Assembly (NCBI GenBank): GCA_951406725.2
Contig: OX597838.1
Location: 40,672,001 to 40,736,000 of the forward strand
Origin: Octopus vulgaris
Lineage: Eukaryota
Reading direction: 5' to 3'
DNA: 64,000 nt
A model generated the notes under the pieces. That model made no database searches. It was not told the origin of the DNA and saw only the letters and a program-made list of their open reading frames with translations. Below, in pieces: positions 2,480 through 59,869 of the stretch. The position numbers were made by a program, and so were the translations under genes. Positions within the stretch are counted from its first letter, which is position 1; every line of letters begins with the position of its first letter.

Positions 2480-3022
2480 GTACTTCGACTGGGCATACAC
2501 ACACCTTCTTCCATACACGGGAGATTGTGTAAGAAGTATGGTCTTGAAAGGACATTGAAATGGTACGAGCATTAAACCAGAAGACGTCACTGAGAACAAT
2601 GAGGATAAGATTTTATGGGACTCTGTGTGACTCAGTGATTGATGCTCGGAAACTAGAAATTGTTGTAGGGGATAAGAGGAAGCGGGAAATGAAGATCATA
2701 AACATTGGCATTCATGGGGATGTACGAGTGGGTGACAAAGTAGAAGCTAATATAGTTGTAGGGGCACTTGGGAGCATTAACAACCAGGTATGAGAAATTT
2801 GGAGAAATTGGGAATGACACGCGGGTAGAATATACTCAGAGATCTGTTTTGTTGCGGGAAGCGAGGGTCTTAAGATTGGGGGTTGGGTGTTAAGTATCGC
2901 GGAAAGTGATTCTGTGAGACATTTGACAACAGGTTGCTATCCGCTTTTACAGAGTTAACCGAGCATGGGAGATCGAGAACTCTGGGAAGTCGAGTGATGG
3001 TAATGACAACAACAATAATAAT
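2480..3022 (+). mobile_element. Degenerate R4/Dong-clade LINE 3' fragment (restriction-like endonuclease region)
   Basis: Frameshifted translation WYEH-PEDVTENNEDKILWD...CDSVIDARKLEIVVGDKRKREMKIINIGI...IVVGALG is typical of the R4/Dong RLE domain. It ends at a short (AAT)n near 3013-3022. Confidence 0.7.
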
Positions 3023-3401
3023 AAAGAAGAAAAGAAAACAAATTCATAAAAAAAACTCGTTATTCATAATACCGTCAAATCTAGTAAAATATAACAATAA
3101 GATATGAAAGACAAGAGAATGAAATATAAATTGAAATATATTGGAAATATATATGCAACACCTGCGGTGAGAGAAATAATGTATTATGTTAATTTATTCA
3201 TGGACAGAGAATGTAGTAAAGCAATATGTATTCATAAACTACGAAAAACTAAAACGACTACCCCGAAAACAGAGTTTTACAACATTGTCCACCAAAACAT
3301 TCCAGTGTTGAGGCAAGAGTCAAGAATGGAACAAGCACACGAAATAGTCAAAGACTATTAAAGACTAAATCACATTTCACAATATATAATACATGTATAT
3401 G

Positions 3402-48903: not shown

Positions 48904-49170
48904 CAAATTGTGTGTAGGCTTTCATAAATATACAAGCGCTTTCCGTTCTCAACGTTATCACGCTCATATTATGGCTATTGTATATAGCGGAATATGTGGT
49001 TGATAATGTTTAAGTACCGGTTACGTACTGGGGTCGATATAATCGACTTAATCCGTTTGTCTGTCCTTGTTTGTCCTCTCTATGTTTAGCCCCTTGTGCG
49101 CAGTAAAGAAATATGATAACGTTGAGAACTGAAAGCGCTTGAGCATTCATTAAAGCCTACACGCAATTTG
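48904..49170. repeat. Fold-back inverted repeat enclosing a SINE B tail
   Basis: 48904-48960 versus 49114-49170; SINE B 3' portion at about 49010-49112. Confidence 0.7.
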
Positions 49171-49689
49171 TCGTAAACAAAGTGGTGTGGGTTCGAGTCC
49201 CACGCGTACGGAAAACCCTACTTTTTCTGTCAAGGGCTTATATATTCCTTTATTAGACTATTTTCTTTAGTCATTGCGCGGTGATTGCTTATAAGCTTTA
49301 AGTTTATAAGATACTATTATATATATGCATGTTATTGTATTTTTCTTTCTTACTTCTGTACTCCGATCTTTCCAGTTCCTTTTCTTGCTTTTCAGATTTA
49401 CTTGTTTATATTTCTCTCTCTTTTTCCCCCTTTCATCTTCTCCCTCTACCAATCCATGTATTTGCGAATGTGTGTGTGTGTGTGTGTGTGTGCATACCTG
49501 TGTGTATCATTACAGGTGTGTTCGCGAACCAATCACCGTTTCCCCATCGATATTAGAAACCAACTTCAACACAATCAGTCAAAACCAGTCGATGAAGTTA
49601 ATTACATTAATCCATATATATTTGTAACTACAATTAACCCTGTGTGCAGAAGAGCCACGAAGACTGAGCCACATTACATGAATATATGC

Positions 49690-49748
<59 letters not shown>

Positions 49749-49766
49749 AATGTATTAATATATATA

Positions 49767-49810
<44 letters not shown>

Positions 49811-49887
49811 TTGAGTTGTGGGGTATCGCACGAGTGGGATTATATAAGAAAAAAGGTTTGAAAATGCAATTTAAACGATGTTTATTT

Positions 49888-49928
49888 ACTTAACCGGTTT
49901 CACTCTTTGGTAAAAGATTGTCAAAAGT
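49888..49928 (-). ncRNA. U3-A8 variant type I hammerhead (3' pLTR)
   Basis: ACTT-TTGACAA-tCTTTTaccaAAGAGt-GAAA-CCGG-TT-AAGT. Confidence 0.75.
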
Positions 49929-50553
49929 TACATTTAAGGAAACATTGAATAATATGGGTTCAAAAAAGTTTTTTACATAATTGTCACATTGAATATTATG
50001 CATTCAAAAAAGTTTTTTACATAATTGTCACATTGAATATTATGCATTCAAAAAAGTTTTTACATAATTGTCACATTGGCTATTATGAATTCAAAAATGT
50101 TTTTTTATACATAATTGTCACATTACATGTATAAATATAGTGTTTGGTAACAGAGAGTTCAATAGTGTGATGAGAATATTTGGGAAAATTTGGCAGAAAA
50201 GGATAAAACAAATATATTATTGGGAATTGCTTGCGTTAATTATTGGTTGTCGCAAATTGTCACATTACATGTATATATATACAATCTTTGGTATATATAT
50301 ACAGTCTTTTGACAGCAAAAATTAAAATGGATTTTTTATACATCTCAGAATATTTAAGTACAAGGCGAGAATATGTTTTTACTGACCTGTCGGTATTAGC
50401 AGAAAGGCTGAACTGAGAGAACAGAGGAAGTAGCCAATGTGGTGTATACTTCCCCTTTATGCATGAATGATTTTGGGGTTATCAGGAGGTTAGTATGCGG
50501 GTGTGAATAGATGTGTCCGTGCCCGCTGGTCAGATAGCGTCTGTTTGTCACAC

Positions 50554-50611
<58 letters not shown>

Positions 50612-50777
50612 TAAACAAACACACACCACATACAAACAACACACACACACACACAGAACACACACACCCACACACAACGCACCCACATATATCACATATA
50701 CACACAGCACACAAATATAATATGTATCTATATATAACATACACAGATATATAACACACATACACACACAACACACA

Positions 50778-50818
<41 letters not shown>

Positions 50819-51352
50819 CACACGCACACATACATACATAATATCACACAAATACACCTAGCATATATATACACACATACAATACACACATACAGCATGT
50901 AAGTAATATACATACACAATATATGCATGCAATATACATACGCAGTACATACATATAATATATATATATAGACAATGCATATACATATATACACATATAC
51001 ATATAAATAGTGTTTACATACACATACATAGATGTACCACATATACACACAATACACATACATACAACGCATACACATACACGTACGCATACATATAATA
51101 TATATATACACACACACACACATAACATACATACACAATGTATACATATATATACACGCAATGCACATACATGTATTCATGCATATATAGCACACCTACA
51201 ATATACATATATACAATGCACACATACACACACATATATCCACTTAAATTGTACATATACATATACAATACACATACATACAATATACATATACACAATG
51301 CGCATGCAAATAATGTACATGTTTATACACACATAAACAAGCAAATAAATAT

Positions 51353-51385
<33 letters not shown>

Positions 51386-51605
51386 CACATATATATATAT
51401 ATATACACACATACATACATACATGCACATACATATATTTTTTCACACACATACACATACATATATATATATATAAAAAATTCACCCCCCCCACACACAA
51501 ATTACAAACCTATAGCGTACACACTCAAATATATCTCTACATGCCGCACACACACACAAACAAAGTACTAACATATACACACATACCATGCATATACACA
51601 CACAA

Positions 51606-51654
<49 letters not shown>

Positions 51655-51880
51655 CAAATACACATGTAAATACATACATACGTACACAATGCTCACACAC
51701 ACACACACACACACATACACACACACCCGCACACAGTGCACACACACACATATATACACACGTGCACACACACATACACACAACGCGCGCGCACACACAC
51801 ACATACACACACACGCACACAGTGCACACACACACACACACACATATATATATACACCCGCGCACACACACACACACAAC

Positions 51881-51918
<38 letters not shown>

Positions 51919-52103
51919 CACTCACACACATACATCACCTACATATATATAATGCATGCGTGTGCATGCCACGTATGTGTGCGGTCAATGCCCGCTAGTG
52001 TGTCCTATGCGTGCCGATGCGCGCATGTGCCCGCCCGCACGATATGCTGTGAGCGTGCGCGCGTCCCTGTGTGCTTGCTCTGGATGTGTTTCCAGGGGGT
52101 ATG

Positions 52104-54380
52104 TTAGAGTATGTTTAGTTGTGGTCTGTATTTTTGAATAAGATTACTTTCCTTATTTATTCGTGTTTGGTCTGTGGTGTTGTCCGAGCATTGGTATAGT
52201 GGGAAGACTAAGAATTTGGGGGACTTATTGTGTGCACAATGGTCTAAGTGTCCACTTAGTGGTATCTGTCTTGTGGAGGGGTCCCTCAGTTGTTGTCGGT
52301 GAACTGTCATTCTGTCTCTGAGGGTAAGGCTCGTTTGCCCTATGTAGTCTTCGTGGCATCCTTCACACCTTATGACGTAGAGTAAATTTTTTGATGCGCA
52401 CGTGAAATTATTTTTTATGATGAATGTGTGTCCCGAGTGGAACTTGTACGATGATCCCTCAATGAGGTGGATGCAGGTCTTGCAGTTGGGGCGACCACAT
52501 TTTTTGATGGTGGGCGGTGGGTTTGTGTTGTGTAATTTTGCGTTGGTGAGGAGGTTTTTTAGGGATTTAGGTTGTCTCTTACTTTTTATTATTTTATGAG
52601 CTGCCAGTATTTTTTTCAGGCGTGGGTCTTGATTTAGTTGTGGAATGTTGTTGTATATAATAGTGTAAGCTTCTGCATTCCTTGGGTTGTGTGTTGAGAG
52701 ATAAGGGAGGCTATTGACTGTACTGTGGATGTGTTTGGGTTTTCGAAGGTCTTGAATGTTGATTGATTTGGCCCGTTCTATTCTGTTGTCTACTAGTGAT
52801 GCCGGGTAATGTCTTTCGAGAAGAATTGCCCTTAGTTCCCGGAGTCTTCTATTTCGTGTTGTGTCATTTGAGACAATAGTGCAGATTCTTCTCGCTAGGT
52901 TGAAGGGGATATTTGTCTTTGTGTGTTTTGGGTGATTGGAGGTGAATAGAAGGTATTGTTTAGAGTCAGTGGGTTTGTAATGGATGTCAGTTTCAATGTT
53001 GACGCCTTTTTTAATGATTAGGATGTCAAGAAAAGGGAGTTGGTCCTGACTATATTCCATTGTGAATTGAATGTTGTTATTTACACTGTTGATAAGGTTT
53101 TTGAAGTCTATAAGTTGGTCGAGTGTGTGGGACCATAGGATGAGGCAATCATCTAAGTAGCGTTTCCAGTTCTCCAACAGGTATTTGTGGAAAGACTGGC
53201 CGTACTTATATTTGGATTTTTCATAGATATGTGATTCCAGGTAGGCCATCACCAGGTTTGCATAGGTAGGTGCAACTTTCGTACCCATTGCAGTTCCTGA
53301 GACCTGTCTGTAAGTGTTGTTGTGGAAATACATGAAGTTGTTTTGCAGAATAAATTTGAGGCCCTCAATTATGAATTCTTTTTTAATTCTTTCCGGGATC
53401 TCATTGGGATATTTATCCAGCCAGAATTTAATGGCTTCCAGTCCAAATTCATGTGGGATTGTGGTGTAAAGATTAATAACATCAAAAGAAACGATTAAGG
53501 TGTCTTTATCGGCATGTTTGGGGAGATGGTTTAATAGGTCCAGGTCATCTCTTACAATACTTGGAATGTGTTTCAGTATTGGCTTTAAGATGATATCTAT
53601 AAAGTTGCTAAGTCTGTGTGTTTCACAACTTGGGCCTGCCACTATTGGTCTCAGTTTGAGATCAGTGGGATGTGGTATAGTGATGCAGGTTGAAGTGGAC
53701 TTTTTGCAAGCTTCTGTGATAATTTGACTCTTGTGTATTTTTGGAAGCCCATAGAGTGTGCTGGTTTTGCAATTAAATTTAGTAATGTAGTCGCATTCCT
53801 TTGCTGTCAAGTCATTCCGGTGTTGGTAAATGAGTGCCTTCAGATTGGTCATTGTTTTGGATTGCTGGTAGTCGACTACTCTTTCGTAGTATGTGGTATC
53901 CTCTAAAAGGAGAGATACAGAGTTTTTATATTGCTCAGTATTCATAACAACGACCGTACTACCCTTATCAGCTTCCTTTATTGTGACGTCATGATTGTCT
54001 CGTAGCGTATGGATGATTTCCCATTCTCTTTTACTGGTGTTGGGTTTGAGTTTAGGTTGTGGGAGTTCACCATAAGGGAAGTTGGAGATGTAATCGCAAA
54101 ATTTGTCTAAGGTTTTGTTTTTGCCTTTTATGGGATTATAGTTGCTTTTGTTACAGACCATTGATTCGTCGTTATTATTAGTTTTCCTGTCAAAAAATTC
54201 CTCTGTGAGGCGTAATTTTCTGCAAAAGTGCGAGATGTCATCCTGTATTTCCCTCAGGTTAGGGTATTGCGGAGTTGGGGTGAATTTTAGTCCTCTTGAA
54301 AGGATTTTTATTTGTGGTGTCGACAGGTTTAGGTTAGAAAGATTCACTATTTTTGGTTTTTCGGGGTTGGTATCTACCAT
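52104..54380 (-). CDS. PLE ORF2: reverse transcriptase, Cys-rich linker and GIY-YIG endonuclease
   Basis: IVNLS..LSRGLKF, KEADKG, YGLPKIHK, LRPIV, SFDVINLYTTIP, GTAMG..APTYANL, RYLDD, LPFLD, linker CGRPNCKTC...TC, and NLLYVIRCEGC..YIGQT..R..H. Uninterrupted 758 aa. Confidence 0.97.
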   Translation of the reverse strand: MVDTNPEKPKIVNLSNLNLSTPQIKILSRGLKFTPTPQYPNLREIQDDISHFCRKLRLTEEFFDRKTNNNDESMVCNKSNYNPIKGKNKTLDKFCDYISNFPYGELPQPKLKPNTSKREWEIIHTLRDNHDVTIKEADKGSTVVVMNTEQYKNSVSLLLEDTTYYERVVDYQQSKTMTNLKALIYQHRNDLTAKECDYITKFNCKTSTLYGLPKIHKSQIITEACKKSTSTCITIPHPTDLKLRPIVAGPSCETHRLSNFIDIILKPILKHIPSIVRDDLDLLNHLPKHADKDTLIVSFDVINLYTTIPHEFGLEAIKFWLDKYPNEIPERIKKEFIIEGLKFILQNNFMYFHNNTYRQVSGTAMGTKVAPTYANLVMAYLESHIYEKSKYKYGQSFHKYLLENWKRYLDDCLILWSHTLDQLIDFKNLINSVNNNIQFTMEYSQDQLPFLDILIIKKGVNIETDIHYKPTDSKQYLLFTSNHPKHTKTNIPFNLARRICTIVSNDTTRNRRLRELRAILLERHYPASLVDNRIERAKSINIQDLRKPKHIHSTVNSLPYLSTHNPRNAEAYTIIYNNIPQLNQDPRLKKILAAHKIIKSKRQPKSLKNLLTNAKLHNTNPPPTIKKCGRPNCKTCIHLIEGSSYKFHSGHTFIIKNNFTCASKNLLYVIRCEGCHEDYIGQTSLTLRDRMTVHRQQLRDPSTRQIPLSGHLDHCAHNKSPKFLVFPLYQCSDNTTDQTRINKESNLIQKYRPQLNIL

Positions 54381-55717
54381 CTGGTGTCGTGGAAACTGAT
54401 GCCCTTGCCTAAAAAAGGAATCCTGGGGGTTCTTCTATTTGCGGTATTTTGCTGTATGTGATTCTGTCCCCCGTTGACATGTCTGTTGAAGAGGTTTTGG
54501 TTGTTGTGATTCTGTCCCCCGTTGCTATGTTGTCTGTTGAGGAGGTTTTGGTTGTTCCAGGGTCTGGGTTGTTGGTGTGGCCTCCTGGAAGAGTTTTGGT
54601 TATTCCAGGGTTTGGGTTGTTTGTCCTGGGTGTAATGTTGGTTCCTTAGAGTGGGTTGGAAACTATATTCATGGTTTAGAAGTGAATCCCTATATGTTGG
54701 GGGAGAACTCTGAGTTAGGAGCGGTTTGGGTTGGAATCTACAATCATAGTTCAGAGATGGGTTTTTAAGTGATGGGTAGGATCTCCGAATCTGGAACGGT
54801 TCTTGTGTGGGTTGGGGTCTACGTTGTCTGGTAAAGTTTTGTCGTGTGATGATGGGTGTCTCGGTTCTTTTGATGGGATTGTAGTGCTGTCTGTAAGTTC
54901 TGTTGTTGTTGTTGTCGATGTTAGGGGTGGTGTGTGTTCGGTGTTTTGTGGTTGGTTTTCTTTGTTTTTGGCGAGGGGTGTGAGTTGAAGTAGATATTTT
55001 AAAATATGGGTTGCTTGAAAGGTGTTCCTTTGTGAACTCTGTTTCATAATTGGTGAACCAGCTGTTTTTTTCCATTCGCTGGAGGGATGTTATTTCTTCA
55101 TCCTCGCAGTTTTTTCTCCAGAGTTTGGTGGTTTCATCAAGGAGTGCTCCTTCACAGTGTTTTGAGATTTCAATCTGCATTTCATTGTCAAGGGTCTTGG
55201 ATTTTTCTTCACTGGCGTTGGCTCTGAGCCGCAAGTGTTCTACTTCCGTTTTGAATTTTTCAAAAGCTAGTTTCTCCCTGAGGTTTTTTTGGTTTTCTGG
55301 TTCATTTTGGATGGGTTTTATTTGTAGTTTTCTGGGTAGGATGATAGGGGTGGAGTTGAGCCACTTTTCATAAATGTCAGCTTTGTTGATATTTTTTATG
55401 AAATTCCAGAAGGCAAACTTACGCGCTTTGAGATTTTTACTCCAGGTGTTGTTAAGAGAGCTTTTAATTGAGAAGCAGTCTTTAGTTTGCTCCTGCTTTG
55501 GGAGCACTGCCGTCTCTATGGATTTCATTAGGTTTTGCAGTGTTGGGATGATGTCAGGGATTTGATTGGTTGTTTTGGCCTCCATGAGTCCATTTAGGTA
55601 TAAGTGCGATTGTTCGACATTGTTTATTATGGTTGAAAGTTTCGAGGAGATTTCTTGTAATTCTTTTAGGATATTTTGGTTCATTAAAGATTCTGCTTGT
55701 TGTGATTTGGGTGGCAT
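54374..55717 (-). CDS. PLE ORF1: helical/coiled-coil-like N-terminal two thirds and Q/N/R-rich repetitive tail
   Basis: 447-aa open frame starting about 40 nt after the upstream pLTR. Heptad-like E/K/L-rich segments and repeats PWNNQN and NGGQNH. Overlaps ORF2. Confidence 0.85.
   Translation of the reverse strand: MPPKSQQAESLMNQNILKELQEISSKLSTIINNVEQSHLYLNGLMEAKTTNQIPDIIPTLQNLMKSIETAVLPKQEQTKDCFSIKSSLNNTWSKNLKARKFAFWNFIKNINKADIYEKWLNSTPIILPRKLQIKPIQNEPENQKNLREKLAFEKFKTEVEHLRLRANASEEKSKTLDNEMQIEISKHCEGALLDETTKLWRKNCEDEEITSLQRMEKNSWFTNYETEFTKEHLSSNPYFKISTSTHTPRQKQRKPTTKHRTHTTPNIDNNNNRTYRQHYNPIKRTETPIITRQNFTRQRRPQPTQEPFQIRRSYPSLKNPSLNYDCRFQPKPLLTQSSPPTYRDSLLNHEYSFQPTLRNQHYTQDKQPKPWNNQNSSRRPHQQPRPWNNQNLLNRQHSNGGQNHNNQNLFNRHVNGGQNHIQQNTANRRTPRIPFLGKGISFHDTRW
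54410..54416 (-). promoter_or_regulatory. Predicted -1 ribosomal frameshift slippery site U_UUU_UUA
   Basis: CCT TTT TTA GGC is in the ORF1 frame; the -1 frame is open from 54434 directly into ORF2. Confidence 0.75.
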
Positions 55718-55837
55718 TTTCGGGACTCGTGTGATGTTTATATATATATATATATAAAAGTTGAGTTGTGGGGTATCGCACGAGTGGGATTATATAAGAA
55801 AAAAGGTTTGAAAATGCAATTTAAACGATGTTTATTT

Positions 55838-55878
55838 ACTTAACCGGTTTCACTCTTTGGTAAAAGATTGTCAAAAGT
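55838..55878 (-). ncRNA. U3-A8 variant hammerhead (upstream pLTR)
   Basis: Identical to 49888-49928; about 120 nt upstream of the ORF1 ATG. Confidence 0.75.
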
Positions 55879-56932
55879 TACATTTAAGGAAACATTGAAT
55901 AATATGGGTTCAAAAAAAGTTTTTTACATAATTGTCACATTGAATATTATGCATTCAAAAAAGTTTTTACATAATTGTCACATTGGATATTATGAATTCA
56001 AAAATGAGTGTGTACGCTATAGGTTTGTAATTTGTGTGTGGGGGGGGTAAATTTTTTATATATATATATGTATGTGTATGTGTGTGAAAAAATATATGTA
56101 TGTGCATGTATGTATGTATGTATGTGTGTATATATATATATATATGTGTATATATATGTGTGTGTGTATGTGTGTGTGTGTATATTTATTTGCTTGTTTA
56201 TGTGTGTATAAACATGTACAATATTTGCATGCGCATTGTGTATATGTATATTGTATGTATGTGTATTGTATATGTATGTGTACAATTAAGTGTATATATG
56301 TGTGTGTATGTGTGCATTGTATATATGTATATTGTAGGTGTGCTATATATGCATGAATACATGTATGTGCATTGCGTGTATATATATGTATACATTGTGT
56401 ATGTATGTTATGTGTGTGTGTGTATATATATATTATATGTATGCGTACGTGTATGTGTATGCGTTGTATGTATGTATATTGTGTGTATATGTGGTACATC
56501 TATGTATGTGTATGTAAACACTATTTATATGTATATGTGTATATATGTATATGCATTGTCTATATATATATATTATATGTATGTACTGCGTATGTATATT
56601 GCATGCATATATTGTGTATGTATATTACTTACATGCTGTATGTGTGTATTGTATGTGTATATATATGCTAGGTGTATTTGTGTGATATTTATATTATGTA
56701 TGTATGTGTGCGTGTGTTGTGTGTGTGTGTGTGTATATATGTGTGTGTGTTGTGTGTGTATGTGTGTTATATATCTGTGTATGTTATATATAGATACATA
56801 TTATATTTGTGTGCTGTGTGTATATGTGATATATGTGGGTGCGTTGTGTGTGGGTGTGTGTGTTCTGTGTGTGTGTGTGTTGTTTGTATGTGGTGTGTGT
56901 TTGTTTACTATGTGTGTGTGTGTGTGTGTTGT

Positions 56933-56971
<39 letters not shown>

Positions 56972-57551
56972 GACAAACAGACGCTATCTGACCAGCGGGC
57001 ACGGACACATCTATTCACACCCGCATACTAACCTCCTGATAACCCCAAAATCATTCATGCATAAAGGGGAAGTATACACCACATTGGCTACTTCCTCTGT
57101 TCTCTCAGTTCAGCCTTTCAGCTAATACCGACAGGTCAGTAAAAACATATTCTCGCCTTGTACTTAAAATATTCTGAGATGTATAAAAAATCCATTTTAA
57201 TTTTTGCTGTCAAAAAACTGTATATATATACCAAAGATTGTATATATATACATGTAATGTGACAATTTGCGACAACCAATAATTAACGCAAGCAATTCCC
57301 AATAATATATTTGTTTTATCCTTTTCTGCCAAATTTTCCCAAATATTCTCATCACACTATTGAACTTCTCTGTTACCAAACACTATATTTATACATGTAA
57401 TGTGACAATTATGTATAAAAAAACATTTTTGAATTCATAATATCCAATGTGACAATTATGTAAAAACTTTTTTGAATGCATAATATTCAATGTGACAATT
57501 ATGTAAAAAAACTTTTTTGAACCCATATTATTCAATGTTTCCTTAAATGTA

Positions 57552-57592
57552 ACTTTTGACAATCTTTTACCAAAGAGTGAAACCGGTTAAGT
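57552..57592 (+). ncRNA. U3-A8 variant hammerhead (inverted pLTR)
   Basis: ACTT 57552-57555, TTGACAA 57556-57562, GAAA 57579-57582, CCGG, TT, AAGT 57589-57592. Confidence 0.75.
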
Positions 57593-57807
57593 AAATAAAC
57601 ATCGTTTAAATTGCATTTTCAAACCTTTTTTCTTATATATATATATATATATATATACATAAATATATAAATATATATATATGCATATATATATATATAT
57701 TTAAATATATATATATAAATATATAAATTTAAATATTTATACATATATACATATTTAAGTATTTTTATATATATATTTCAATATATATATTTAAATATTT
57801 AAATATT

Positions 57808-58008
<201 letters not shown>

Positions 58009-58487
58009 GTGTGTATTTTATGTATGCATTTTATTCTTTTCAGGGCCTACTCAATATAAAAGAATGTCTGTAGTCGAGCGCATGTCCCTCCGGGGGTTAT
58101 CACACTGATGTATCGATATTTGTCTTTGAGGTGGCAGCTATAATACAATAAACGATATTGAATATATCGCAAAATAAAACGAACACCAAATAAAAGAAAT
58201 AAAAAGCCAAAGCGCTGTTGCTTCGACTCGCAGCTTTGTTGTCGACGAAGGAGAAGAACGTTAAATGAGGCTTTTCTATATTCGTCTATCCTAGATTTTG
58301 CTGTTAGTGGCTGACCTCATGTCAGCTCTGATCTGACAGATCTATGCAGGATGAAAAGCTGTTTCAGTCGTGACCATCACGTCTTTATCTTTCTATTTGC
58401 TGTATCTAAGACTACGTTGCCAAAATGTGCTTTGTTTTTTGTAAAGGTTGTAGAGATAGTGGGGAATTATTATTATAAGGGGTTCTA

Positions 58488-58890
58488 AGGCTGGTGAGCT
58501 GGCAGAATCGTTAGCACGCCGGGCGAAATGCTTAGCGGTATTTCACCTGCCGCTACGTTCTGAGTTCAAATTCCACCGAGGTCGACTTTGGCTTTCATCC
58601 TTTCGGGGCTGATTAAATAAGTACCAGTTACGCACTGGGGTCGATGTAATTGACTTGATCCCTTCCCCCAAATTTGAGGCCTTGTGCTTCCAGTAGAAAG
58701 AATTATTACAAGTGGTAGAGAAGAAGCAGAATAGTAAGCTTAACGGTATTTCGCCCGCCTTTTCGTTCTGAGTTCAAATGCCGCCGAGGTTGACTTTCTC
58801 GTTTACACAGATTCCAGTGGAGCAGTGAGATCTGACTAATCGACTAACACCTCCCACCGAAATTTCAGACGTTCTGCTTTTTGTAGAAAT
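58488..58890 (+). mobile_element. Two tandem SINE family B copies
   Basis: Full copy at 58488-58710 and a diverged copy at 58715-58890 ending in (TTA)n. Confidence 0.85.
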
Positions 58891-58892
58891 TA

Positions 58893-59465
<573 letters not shown>

Positions 59466-59869
59466 GTGAAGGCAATGAGCTGGTAGAATCATTAGCAAGT
59501 CTTCATGTTCTCAGTTCAAATATCCGCAGATGTTGATTTGCCTTCGGAGTCAGTGGAATAAATTGGGCTTTGTATAATCGAGTGGAACCTCTCCGAAAAT
59601 TCCAAACTTTGTGCCTATTGGAGAAAGAATTATTAGATATAAATTAGAGTATCGAGTATTTCTTCCGATACTTGATGTTCTGACTTCAAATCCCACCGAT
59701 GCTATAGATGATCGATTATAAATCGAGTGACAAACGCAGCGAGCGGGAAGAACTGTTGCAGTGACGGAGAAATTCTTTCTGGCGTTAGTAAGAGAATTTT
59801 ATATATAGATATATGTAACGTAATAGATATAATGCACACATATATAACATAGTATAAAATATGATATAC

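Follow-up and report, generated by a model that had tools for sequence, protein, structure and literature searches.

Canonical endonuclease-bearing (EN+) members of the Penelope-like elements (PLEs) are described in the available text of PMC8557442 as having a single open reading frame (ORF), and a CX2-5CxxC linker between the reverse transcriptase (RT) and the endonuclease is given there as an EN+ feature. Two ORFs are reported for Athena and for one Coprina element in the accessible part of PMC13159263, an esterase ORF1 is noted in PLEs in the excerpt of PMC3905857, and the legend of Fig. 1 in PMC8557442 mentions that a frameshift with a pseudoknot can set ORF1 apart. In this study, we analyzed a stretch of 64,000 nucleotides (nt) of the Octopus vulgaris genome (assembly GCA_951406725.2, contig OX597838.1, positions 40,672,001 to 40,736,000; hereafter the window), which contains a young, multi-copy Neptune-type (GIY-YIG) Penelope-like retrotransposon that is a variant and not a plain EN+ member of this type, because it has two ORFs. 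The clade meant by the frameshift legend is presumably Athena. An earlier prediction made from the sequence of this window (the original prediction) had proposed that ORF1 and the RT are joined by -1 frameshifting at a U_UUU_UUA heptamer into a fusion of about 1,200 amino acids (aa). The same heptamer followed by G is the shift site of HIV-1 and alphaviruses according to the sections available of PMC8310308.

The reading that we favor, with a rough probability of 0.8, is that ORF1 and the RT-endonuclease are fused through a -1 frameshift and that the slip is possibly triggered by a paused leading ribosome and not by an RNA fold. Its core, namely programmed -1 frameshifting at the conserved U_UUU_UUA with an ORF1-RT-endonuclease protein as the product, is very probable on comparative grounds. 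All coordinates proposed originally for ORF1, for the RT frame at -1, for the TAG closing this frame upstream, and for the overlap of 61 nt in which both frames are open were confirmed, and the TTTTTTA is indeed an in-frame X_XXY_YYZ heptamer (Table 1). Most ribosomes would make ORF1p, while a few percent would slip and produce the fusion, predicted at 1204 aa (436 + 768), as with gag-pol.

The junction was readable in 17 families of the clade, with RTs that are approximately 32–57% identical. Eight of them are in the host genome, including seven sister families brought up by searches with outside ORF1 proteins, and nine further ones were recovered from metagenome and metagenome-assembled genome (MAG) contigs, which probably come from animal hosts; together with L128, an element outside the clade, they make up the 18 representatives used below. 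A T TTT TTN run in ORF1 phase, with the RT at -1, is present in 8/8 host and 9/9 outside families, so that both the -1 offset and the U_UUU_UUN heptamer are kept in 17/17, the check on related families that the original prediction had called for; the third codon is UUA in 13 families, UUG in three and UUU in one. As the offset and the heptamer are conserved in diverged families that mostly lack an ATG in the RT frame, a -1 frameshift fusion is the best reading of the junction. Among the 47 loci of a first set, the junction could be read in 46, the T-run was intact in 45, and the -1 offset extended over the full ORF1 in 29, the remainder having indels elsewhere. Within the 18 representatives, an in-phase TTTTTT occurs at none of 5480 upstream positions, the RT frame is closed 1–36 codons upstream of the site, and an ATG ahead of the first conserved RT motif exists in only two (the window family and family D), the first Met of the frame being codon 155 in family B and codon 59 in family C. 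Pooled codon usage gives a chance of about 0.04 per family for the codon choices of the site, per-family chances that are not independent trials since the families are related. In the RT tree, the families fall in one clade of 21 rows (SH-aLRT 100), of which the other six rows lack a junction; the tree holds no named Neptune reference sequences, and the clade sits near single-ORF elements that bear the linker. Loci near a contig end or without the junction were dropped (L105, L106, L112, L113, L114, L182-L185, L210, and L273), as were L150 (truncated, without ORF1), L160 (a copy of the L103 family that is decayed and has five Ts) and L108 (a duplicate of L107), while L128 and L170, which lie outside the clade, were included because each showed a site.

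Several side observations concern these families. The G that follows the UUA (position 54409 in the window, and 13/18 family junctions) creates a UAG in the third frame, so that a -2 slip would terminate immediately. Family H (L259-L262 and L268, e.g., G000:C1:197482500-197487000) is a very young sister with 191 junction matches and the site U_UUU_UUU, and in its copies with an extra base ORF1 and RT are fused into about 1200 codons. L102:71-5354 holds a head-to-tail tandem in which ORF1 occurs twice, as identical copies separated by 3699 nt. Penelope RT proteins and contigs are also filed under names of bacterial symbionts or other MAGs (P0019, P0039, P0044, P0086, and L181-L198), and these are probably host DNA that was binned into bacterial genomes.

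Copies of the window element are scattered over many contigs of its own genome, with 98–100% identity among 40 scored copies; both ORFs are open in 4/10 fully fetched copies and six Ts are present in 10/10. A junction pattern retrieved 68 matches in this genome, with six Ts in 56, five in 10, three in one, a T>C change in one and seven, the number that would fuse the frames, in none (0/68), and a control pattern in the same search gave no matches. In addition, the site is spanned by contigs from 4/4 sequencing runs of four studies, which show neither an indel nor a joint or loose end at this place; that these runs are RNA is only a guess. Seven-T copies and splicing across the junction, either of which would have spoken against the original prediction, were thus not seen.

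The ORF1 protein has a conserved all-helical N-terminal domain (~240 aa) followed by a basic, Asn/Gln/Arg-rich low-complexity tail, and its AlphaFold model (mean pLDDT 90.5) contains seven helices. No Pfam family scored above the cut-off, no Foldseek match of the model was obtained at E ≤ 0.001, the best VIA match (Z 8.6, to helical bundles) was uninformative, and Atlas matches at 0.80–0.82 serve as leads only; given its position and the basic tail, ORF1p is probably an RNA-packaging protein. An ORF1 profile matched 921 protein clusters at E ≤ 0.001, the best 150 of which are all ≤ 553 aa and include no fused ORF1-RT protein, and no relatives were found in viral contigs. When compared with 98 outside loci, the profile matched two-ORF elements only, and the domain is absent from the single-ORF linker-bearing relatives L120, L129, and L188. 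Of 149 new homologues, 101 have a tail of at least 60 aa after the domain, and a Phe-Leu pair occurs within the last 40 residues in 76 of these (3/199 in control windows). Of the 79 homologues whose tail contains Phe-Leu at any position, none has Q, K, E, M or W, i.e., a residue without a T-ending codon, directly before the pair (background 20%). In the C-terminal 15 residues of the ORF1 homologues P0136, P0156, P0160 and P0259, Phe-Arg replaces Phe-Leu 11–13 residues from the end, which could be a switch to a UUU-CGN site for +1 shifting.

No stem-loop or pseudoknot located 5–9 nt downstream of the site is conserved across the 18 representatives. In the window, for which five folds were run, the folding of three segments starting at 54409 is weaker than that of their shuffles (z +0.6 to +1.6), which justifies the doubt about the stimulator expressed in the original prediction, and the weak pairs noted there, CATC/GATG and TGGT/ACCA, are not kept in sister families. 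Local structure downstream is no better than in shuffles in 16/18 representatives, amounts to approximately 0 kcal/mol over 60 nt in families C and F, and a search for simple H-type pseudoknots exceeded all 20 shuffles in 1/18. A stimulator based on RNA structure is therefore probably absent, as judged from local folding. The motif GACAC, common to host families A-E 21 nt after the site (537 matches vs. 5 in the control), was rejected as a candidate stimulator because it is confined to the host clade.

What is shared beyond the heptamer is the position of the ORF1 stop. With codons numbered from the slippery Phe (codon 1), the stop falls at codons 3–12 in none of the 79 homologues (38.6 expected) and at codon 13 in 25 (5.1 expected), the expected counts being based on how often stops occur at later codons (0.065 per codon); the empty zone keeps a p of about 4e-5 if only 15 independent lineages are assumed. 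A stop at codon 13 corresponds to 33 nt (11 codons) between ribosomal A sites. The ten residues between Phe-Leu and the stop share no sequence among the 25 cases, and Tyr, Cys, Trp, Phe, Leu or Ser, the residues with T-starting sense codons, are not enriched at codon 13, so a hydrophobic residue kept in the -1 frame does not account for this stop. Seven of the 18 DNA representatives have the codon-13 stop and five more, the window included, have TGG at codon 13. The base at +4 is C in 5/7 codon-13 stops vs. 0/11 later ones (p 0.002, post hoc), C at +4 being a slow-termination context, and later-stop subclades carry Pro-Asp-Pro, Pro-Pro-Asp or Gly-Gly-Gly at codons 11–13. The distant L128 (U_UUU_UUA) and L170 (A_AAA_AAC), which have unrelated ORF1s, also stop at codon 13, and on the ORF1 tree the codon-13 state requires 9 changes.

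Taken together, the stop spacing, the sizes of disomes and reporters of ribosome collision in Escherichia coli led us to propose the leading ribosome as a roadblock. Mouse disomes measure 59–60 and 62–63 nt with leading A-site offsets of 45 and 48 in the available part of PMC7397865, which by our own subtraction correspond to 30 and 33 nt between A sites; human disomes are enriched at stop codons (10.64898/2026.07.21.739814, available sections), and a stop-stalled ribosome raised -1 frameshifting of the trailing one in E. coli, with a peak at 9 codons (PMC6815119, as excerpted). In the proposed sequence of events, a leading ribosome would terminate at codon 13 or, in families with later stops, pause on Trp, Pro-Asp-Pro or Gly-Gly-Gly at codons 11–13, while the trailing ribosome, whose A site is 33 nt behind that of the leader, would have UUU in the P site and UUA in the A site; unable to translocate a full codon freely, it would slip by -1. 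The zone of codons 3–12 would be empty because a stop closer to the site would release the ribosome short of the pause place, and the frameshift rate would rise with ribosome load. In the window family, the nearest candidate roadblocks would be codon 13 (Trp) and codon 14 (the stop). We put the terminating or pausing leader as the frameshift stimulator at just short of even odds. The more general proposal, that the ORF1:RT ratio in a widespread animal retrotransposon clade is set by a structure-free, collision-programmed -1 frameshift with a ribosome exactly 11 codons ahead, is more tentative and falls somewhat below an even chance.

A number of observations weigh against these proposals, either against the frameshift itself or against its trigger. 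None of the listed sequencing runs that hold the element is on record as RNA, 22/101 homologues have no Phe-Leu in the tail (some with visibly broken frames, others unexplained), and in family H one extra base near the site fuses the frames in 5 of the 100 copies listed (191 in all). Beyond that base, the three fused copies examined in a comparison of 10 have no change in common, which suggests independent homopolymer events or errors of assembly. Regarding the trigger, 54/79 homologues stop beyond codon 13, in the window family itself codon 13 is Trp and the stop comes at codon 14 (a 12-codon spacing), and the codon-13 state is clustered on the ORF1 tree (9 changes vs. 21 for shuffles), so that the 25 cases are not independent. 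Furthermore, L175, L176 and L179, two-ORF elements from outside the clade, stop 3–4 codons past the candidate site or directly after it, the sense-codon pause motifs were chosen post hoc, and two families (L101 and L104) have a possible hairpin with z about -2. Collisions in eukaryotes are also reportedly better known for +1 shifts, judging by the title of Simms 2019.

The most serious competitor retains the -1 frameshift and changes only its stimulator, which could be U6A-G alone, long-range RNA pairing, the nascent peptide or a bound protein, with the codon-13 stop explained by ancestry and by a need of ORF1p for at least 10 residues past Phe-Leu; we consider it slightly less than an even bet. 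It gains from the clustering of codon-13 stops and the 54 later ones, from the GACAC of host families A-E, and from our inference that little RT suffices for a retrotransposon. It does not account easily for a length that is exact among 25 cases though the intervening residues share no sequence, nor for the same spacing in L128 and L170 despite unrelated ORF1s, and GACAC does not occur beyond the host clade. With a structure-based stimulator, stops close to the site are tolerated, as at the coronavirus pseudoknot site with a stop five codons downstream (PMC8168617, available text), so that no floor at codon 13 would result.

Explanations that dispense with the frameshift fare considerably worse. 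Termination at the ORF1 TAG followed by a restart on the ATG at 54380, giving a free RT-endonuclease, would fit the overlap of ATG and stop in the window family, the ATG in family D and the many predicted RT homologues that start with Met nearby, although gene callers write other starts as Met too. The ATG is absent in 16/18 representatives, the stop of family D lies ten codons past its ATG, and the conserved in-phase heptamer would go unexplained; the lack of the ATG in most representatives excludes reinitiation as a general route, and we regard this explanation as unlikely. In the window family, the ATG is probably a by-product of Arg-Trp codons, with a second entry through reinitiation being possible, and reinitiation could be a minor extra route there. 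The T-run followed by AG might instead be a 3' splice site, with splicing removing ORF1 and joining a 5' exon to the RT frame: TTTTTTAG is acceptor-like, AG is present in 13/18 representatives, and introns do occur in PLEs (PMC8557442, Fig. 1 legend). This is very unlikely, as AG is absent in 5/18, no joint or loose end was seen at the site in the four runs, and a splice site would not fix ORF1 at exactly one phase in all 18. The least credible of all are explanations in which the polymerase slips on the T-run and adds a base to some transcripts, or in which the offset arose through misassembly or through a mutation in a dead copy of a single-ORF element. The five Ts in 10/68 copies show that the run is indel-prone, and the fused family-H copies point the same way, but the run is just six long and always in one codon phase, the in-frame seven Ts are missing from all 68 copies, the fused H copies have no further change in common, and no fused protein is found among the best 150 ORF1 homologues. 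The -1 frameshift fusion thus remains our preferred reading.

Distant PLEs offer further junctions. In L128 (L128:2300-2860), ORF1 ends in an esterase-looking domain, after which come U_UUU_UUA and, at codon 13, the stop; by its motifs this ORF1 looks like an SGNH esterase, which Pfam did not confirm. The two-ORF element L179 (~2980-3030) has G_GAU_UUU with a stop four codons later and, immediately behind it, a G/C hairpin, which is a conventional structure-type site within the same superfamily. L143, L145, L154, L156 and L178 form a separate clade without a detected endonuclease, with ORF1/RT -1 overlaps of up to 670 nt that open with A_AAA_AAC in 4/5.

The features of the window element are compiled in Table 1. 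Its second frame has a Pfam match to RVT_1 (E 5.5e-08) and a GIY-YIG domain of 24 bits, above the cut-off of 22.6. A (TA)n tract around 49675-49810 adjoins the 3' pseudo-long terminal repeat (pseudo-LTR) in this microsatellite-rich genome of 2.8 Gb, and the inverted 3' copy is an insertion structure typical of Penelope-type elements. No hammerhead ribozyme was detected, either as an Rfam match in 49000-58500 or as a strict core by pattern, a search that variant cores would escape, and the Rfam scan gave only microsatellite-driven microRNA matches below the cut-off. Elsewhere in the window, a fragment at 59049-59510 (-) lies beside (TAA)n tracts and has no Pfam match; it resembles the C-terminal restriction-like endonuclease of an R4/Dong-type retrotransposon.

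Table 1. Features of the Penelope-like element and its ORF1/RT junction (window coordinates)
Feature	Position	Strand	Evidence
ORF1, 447 aa, C-terminal end RIPFLGKGISFHDTRW	55717-54374	(-)	sequence
RT-thumb-linker-GIY-YIG frame, 776 codons, -1 to ORF1	52104..54434	(-)	RVT_1, GIY-YIG
YLDD of RT	53159-53148	(-)	motif placement
Cys linker CGRPNCKTC (CX4CxxC) between RT and endonuclease	52499-52473	(-)	motif placement
GIY-YIG motif	52385-52332	(-)	motif placement
RT-frame closing TAG, 7 codons 5' of the heptamer	54435..54437	(-)	sequence
Slippery heptamer U_UUU_UUA, in phase with ORF1 (Phe435-Leu436), next base G	54410..54416	(-)	sequence
RT-frame ATG that overlaps the stop of ORF1	54378..54380	(-)	sequence
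Codon 13 (TGG, Trp) and codon 14 (TAG, ORF1 stop), proposed pause/termination site	54374..54379	(-)	role inferred
5' pseudo-LTR, direct repeat of the element 3' end	55739..56004	(-)	98.5% identity over 267 nt to 49789-50054
3' untranslated region, microsatellite-rich, ending in the 3' pseudo-LTR (49789-50054)	49789..52103	(-)	10/10 fetched copies
Inverted 5'-truncated copy of the element 3' end	56005..57799	(+)	92.8% identity over 1858 nt to 51527-49681, inverted

Our literature search found no report of a slippery site in the GIY-YIG Penelope clade, Repbase, Dfam, Arkhipova 2017, Gladyshev 2007, and Han 2020 being outside its scope, and no natural case of frameshifting by collision at a stop codon. 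The clade is not reported in the available portions of PMC6431247, PMC3846280, PMC5408684, PMC4700185, PMC8915115, PMC8310308, PMC7618472, and 10.64898/2026.07.22.740005. As a frameshifted ORF1 in PLEs is already partly in print (the legend in PMC8557442), what is new is the endonuclease-bearing clade with the signal, the family of its ORF1 and the spacing of the stop codon. The statement in the original prediction that GIY-YIG PLEs are usually single-ORF stands for canonical EN+ elements as described in the available text of PMC8557442, and needs this legend as a qualification. The single-ORF picture is overturned for a large endonuclease-bearing clade (at least 921 protein clusters of the new ORF1 family), and the two-ORF frameshift layout explains why annotation pipelines clip the RT. 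If the spacing were the stimulator, this would be a natural eukaryotic case of collisions being used, not merely policed, to recode translation, a use treated in reviews as an open possibility (PMC7618472, available text), and RT output would depend on ribosome load.

In comparison with known systems, the window element resembles the Neptune EN+ elements, as far as the accessible text of PMC8557442 describes them, in its RT, CX4CxxC linker and C-terminal GIY-YIG with CCHH-type cysteines as well as in its pseudo-LTR, inverted 3' copy and TA-microsatellite flank, and differs from them by a separate ORF1 without Pfam match, located ahead of the RT in the -1 frame. A separate ORF1 is shared with the two-ORF PLEs (Athena, some Coprina and those with an esterase ORF1), where it is a coiled-coil or esterase protein; Athena and Coprina, however, lack an endonuclease and are telomere-associated, whereas the window element has a GIY-YIG and dispersed copies, its clade shows no conserved pseudoknot and its ORF1 is not an esterase. 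With HIV-1 gag-pol and alphaviruses (PMC8310308, sections as above) it has in common the U_UUU_UUA, usually followed by G, and the order of a structural protein upstream and an enzyme downstream, but it is not a virus and no conserved stem-loop or pseudoknot follows 5–9 nt downstream. Finally, the engineered E. coli collision reporters, as excerpted in PMC6815119, likewise have a slowly decoded stop at a set codon distance downstream of a heptamer; these are artificial and bacterial with an optimum of 9 codons, whereas the arrangement suggested here by conservation alone would be natural and eukaryotic, with a spacing of 11 codons.

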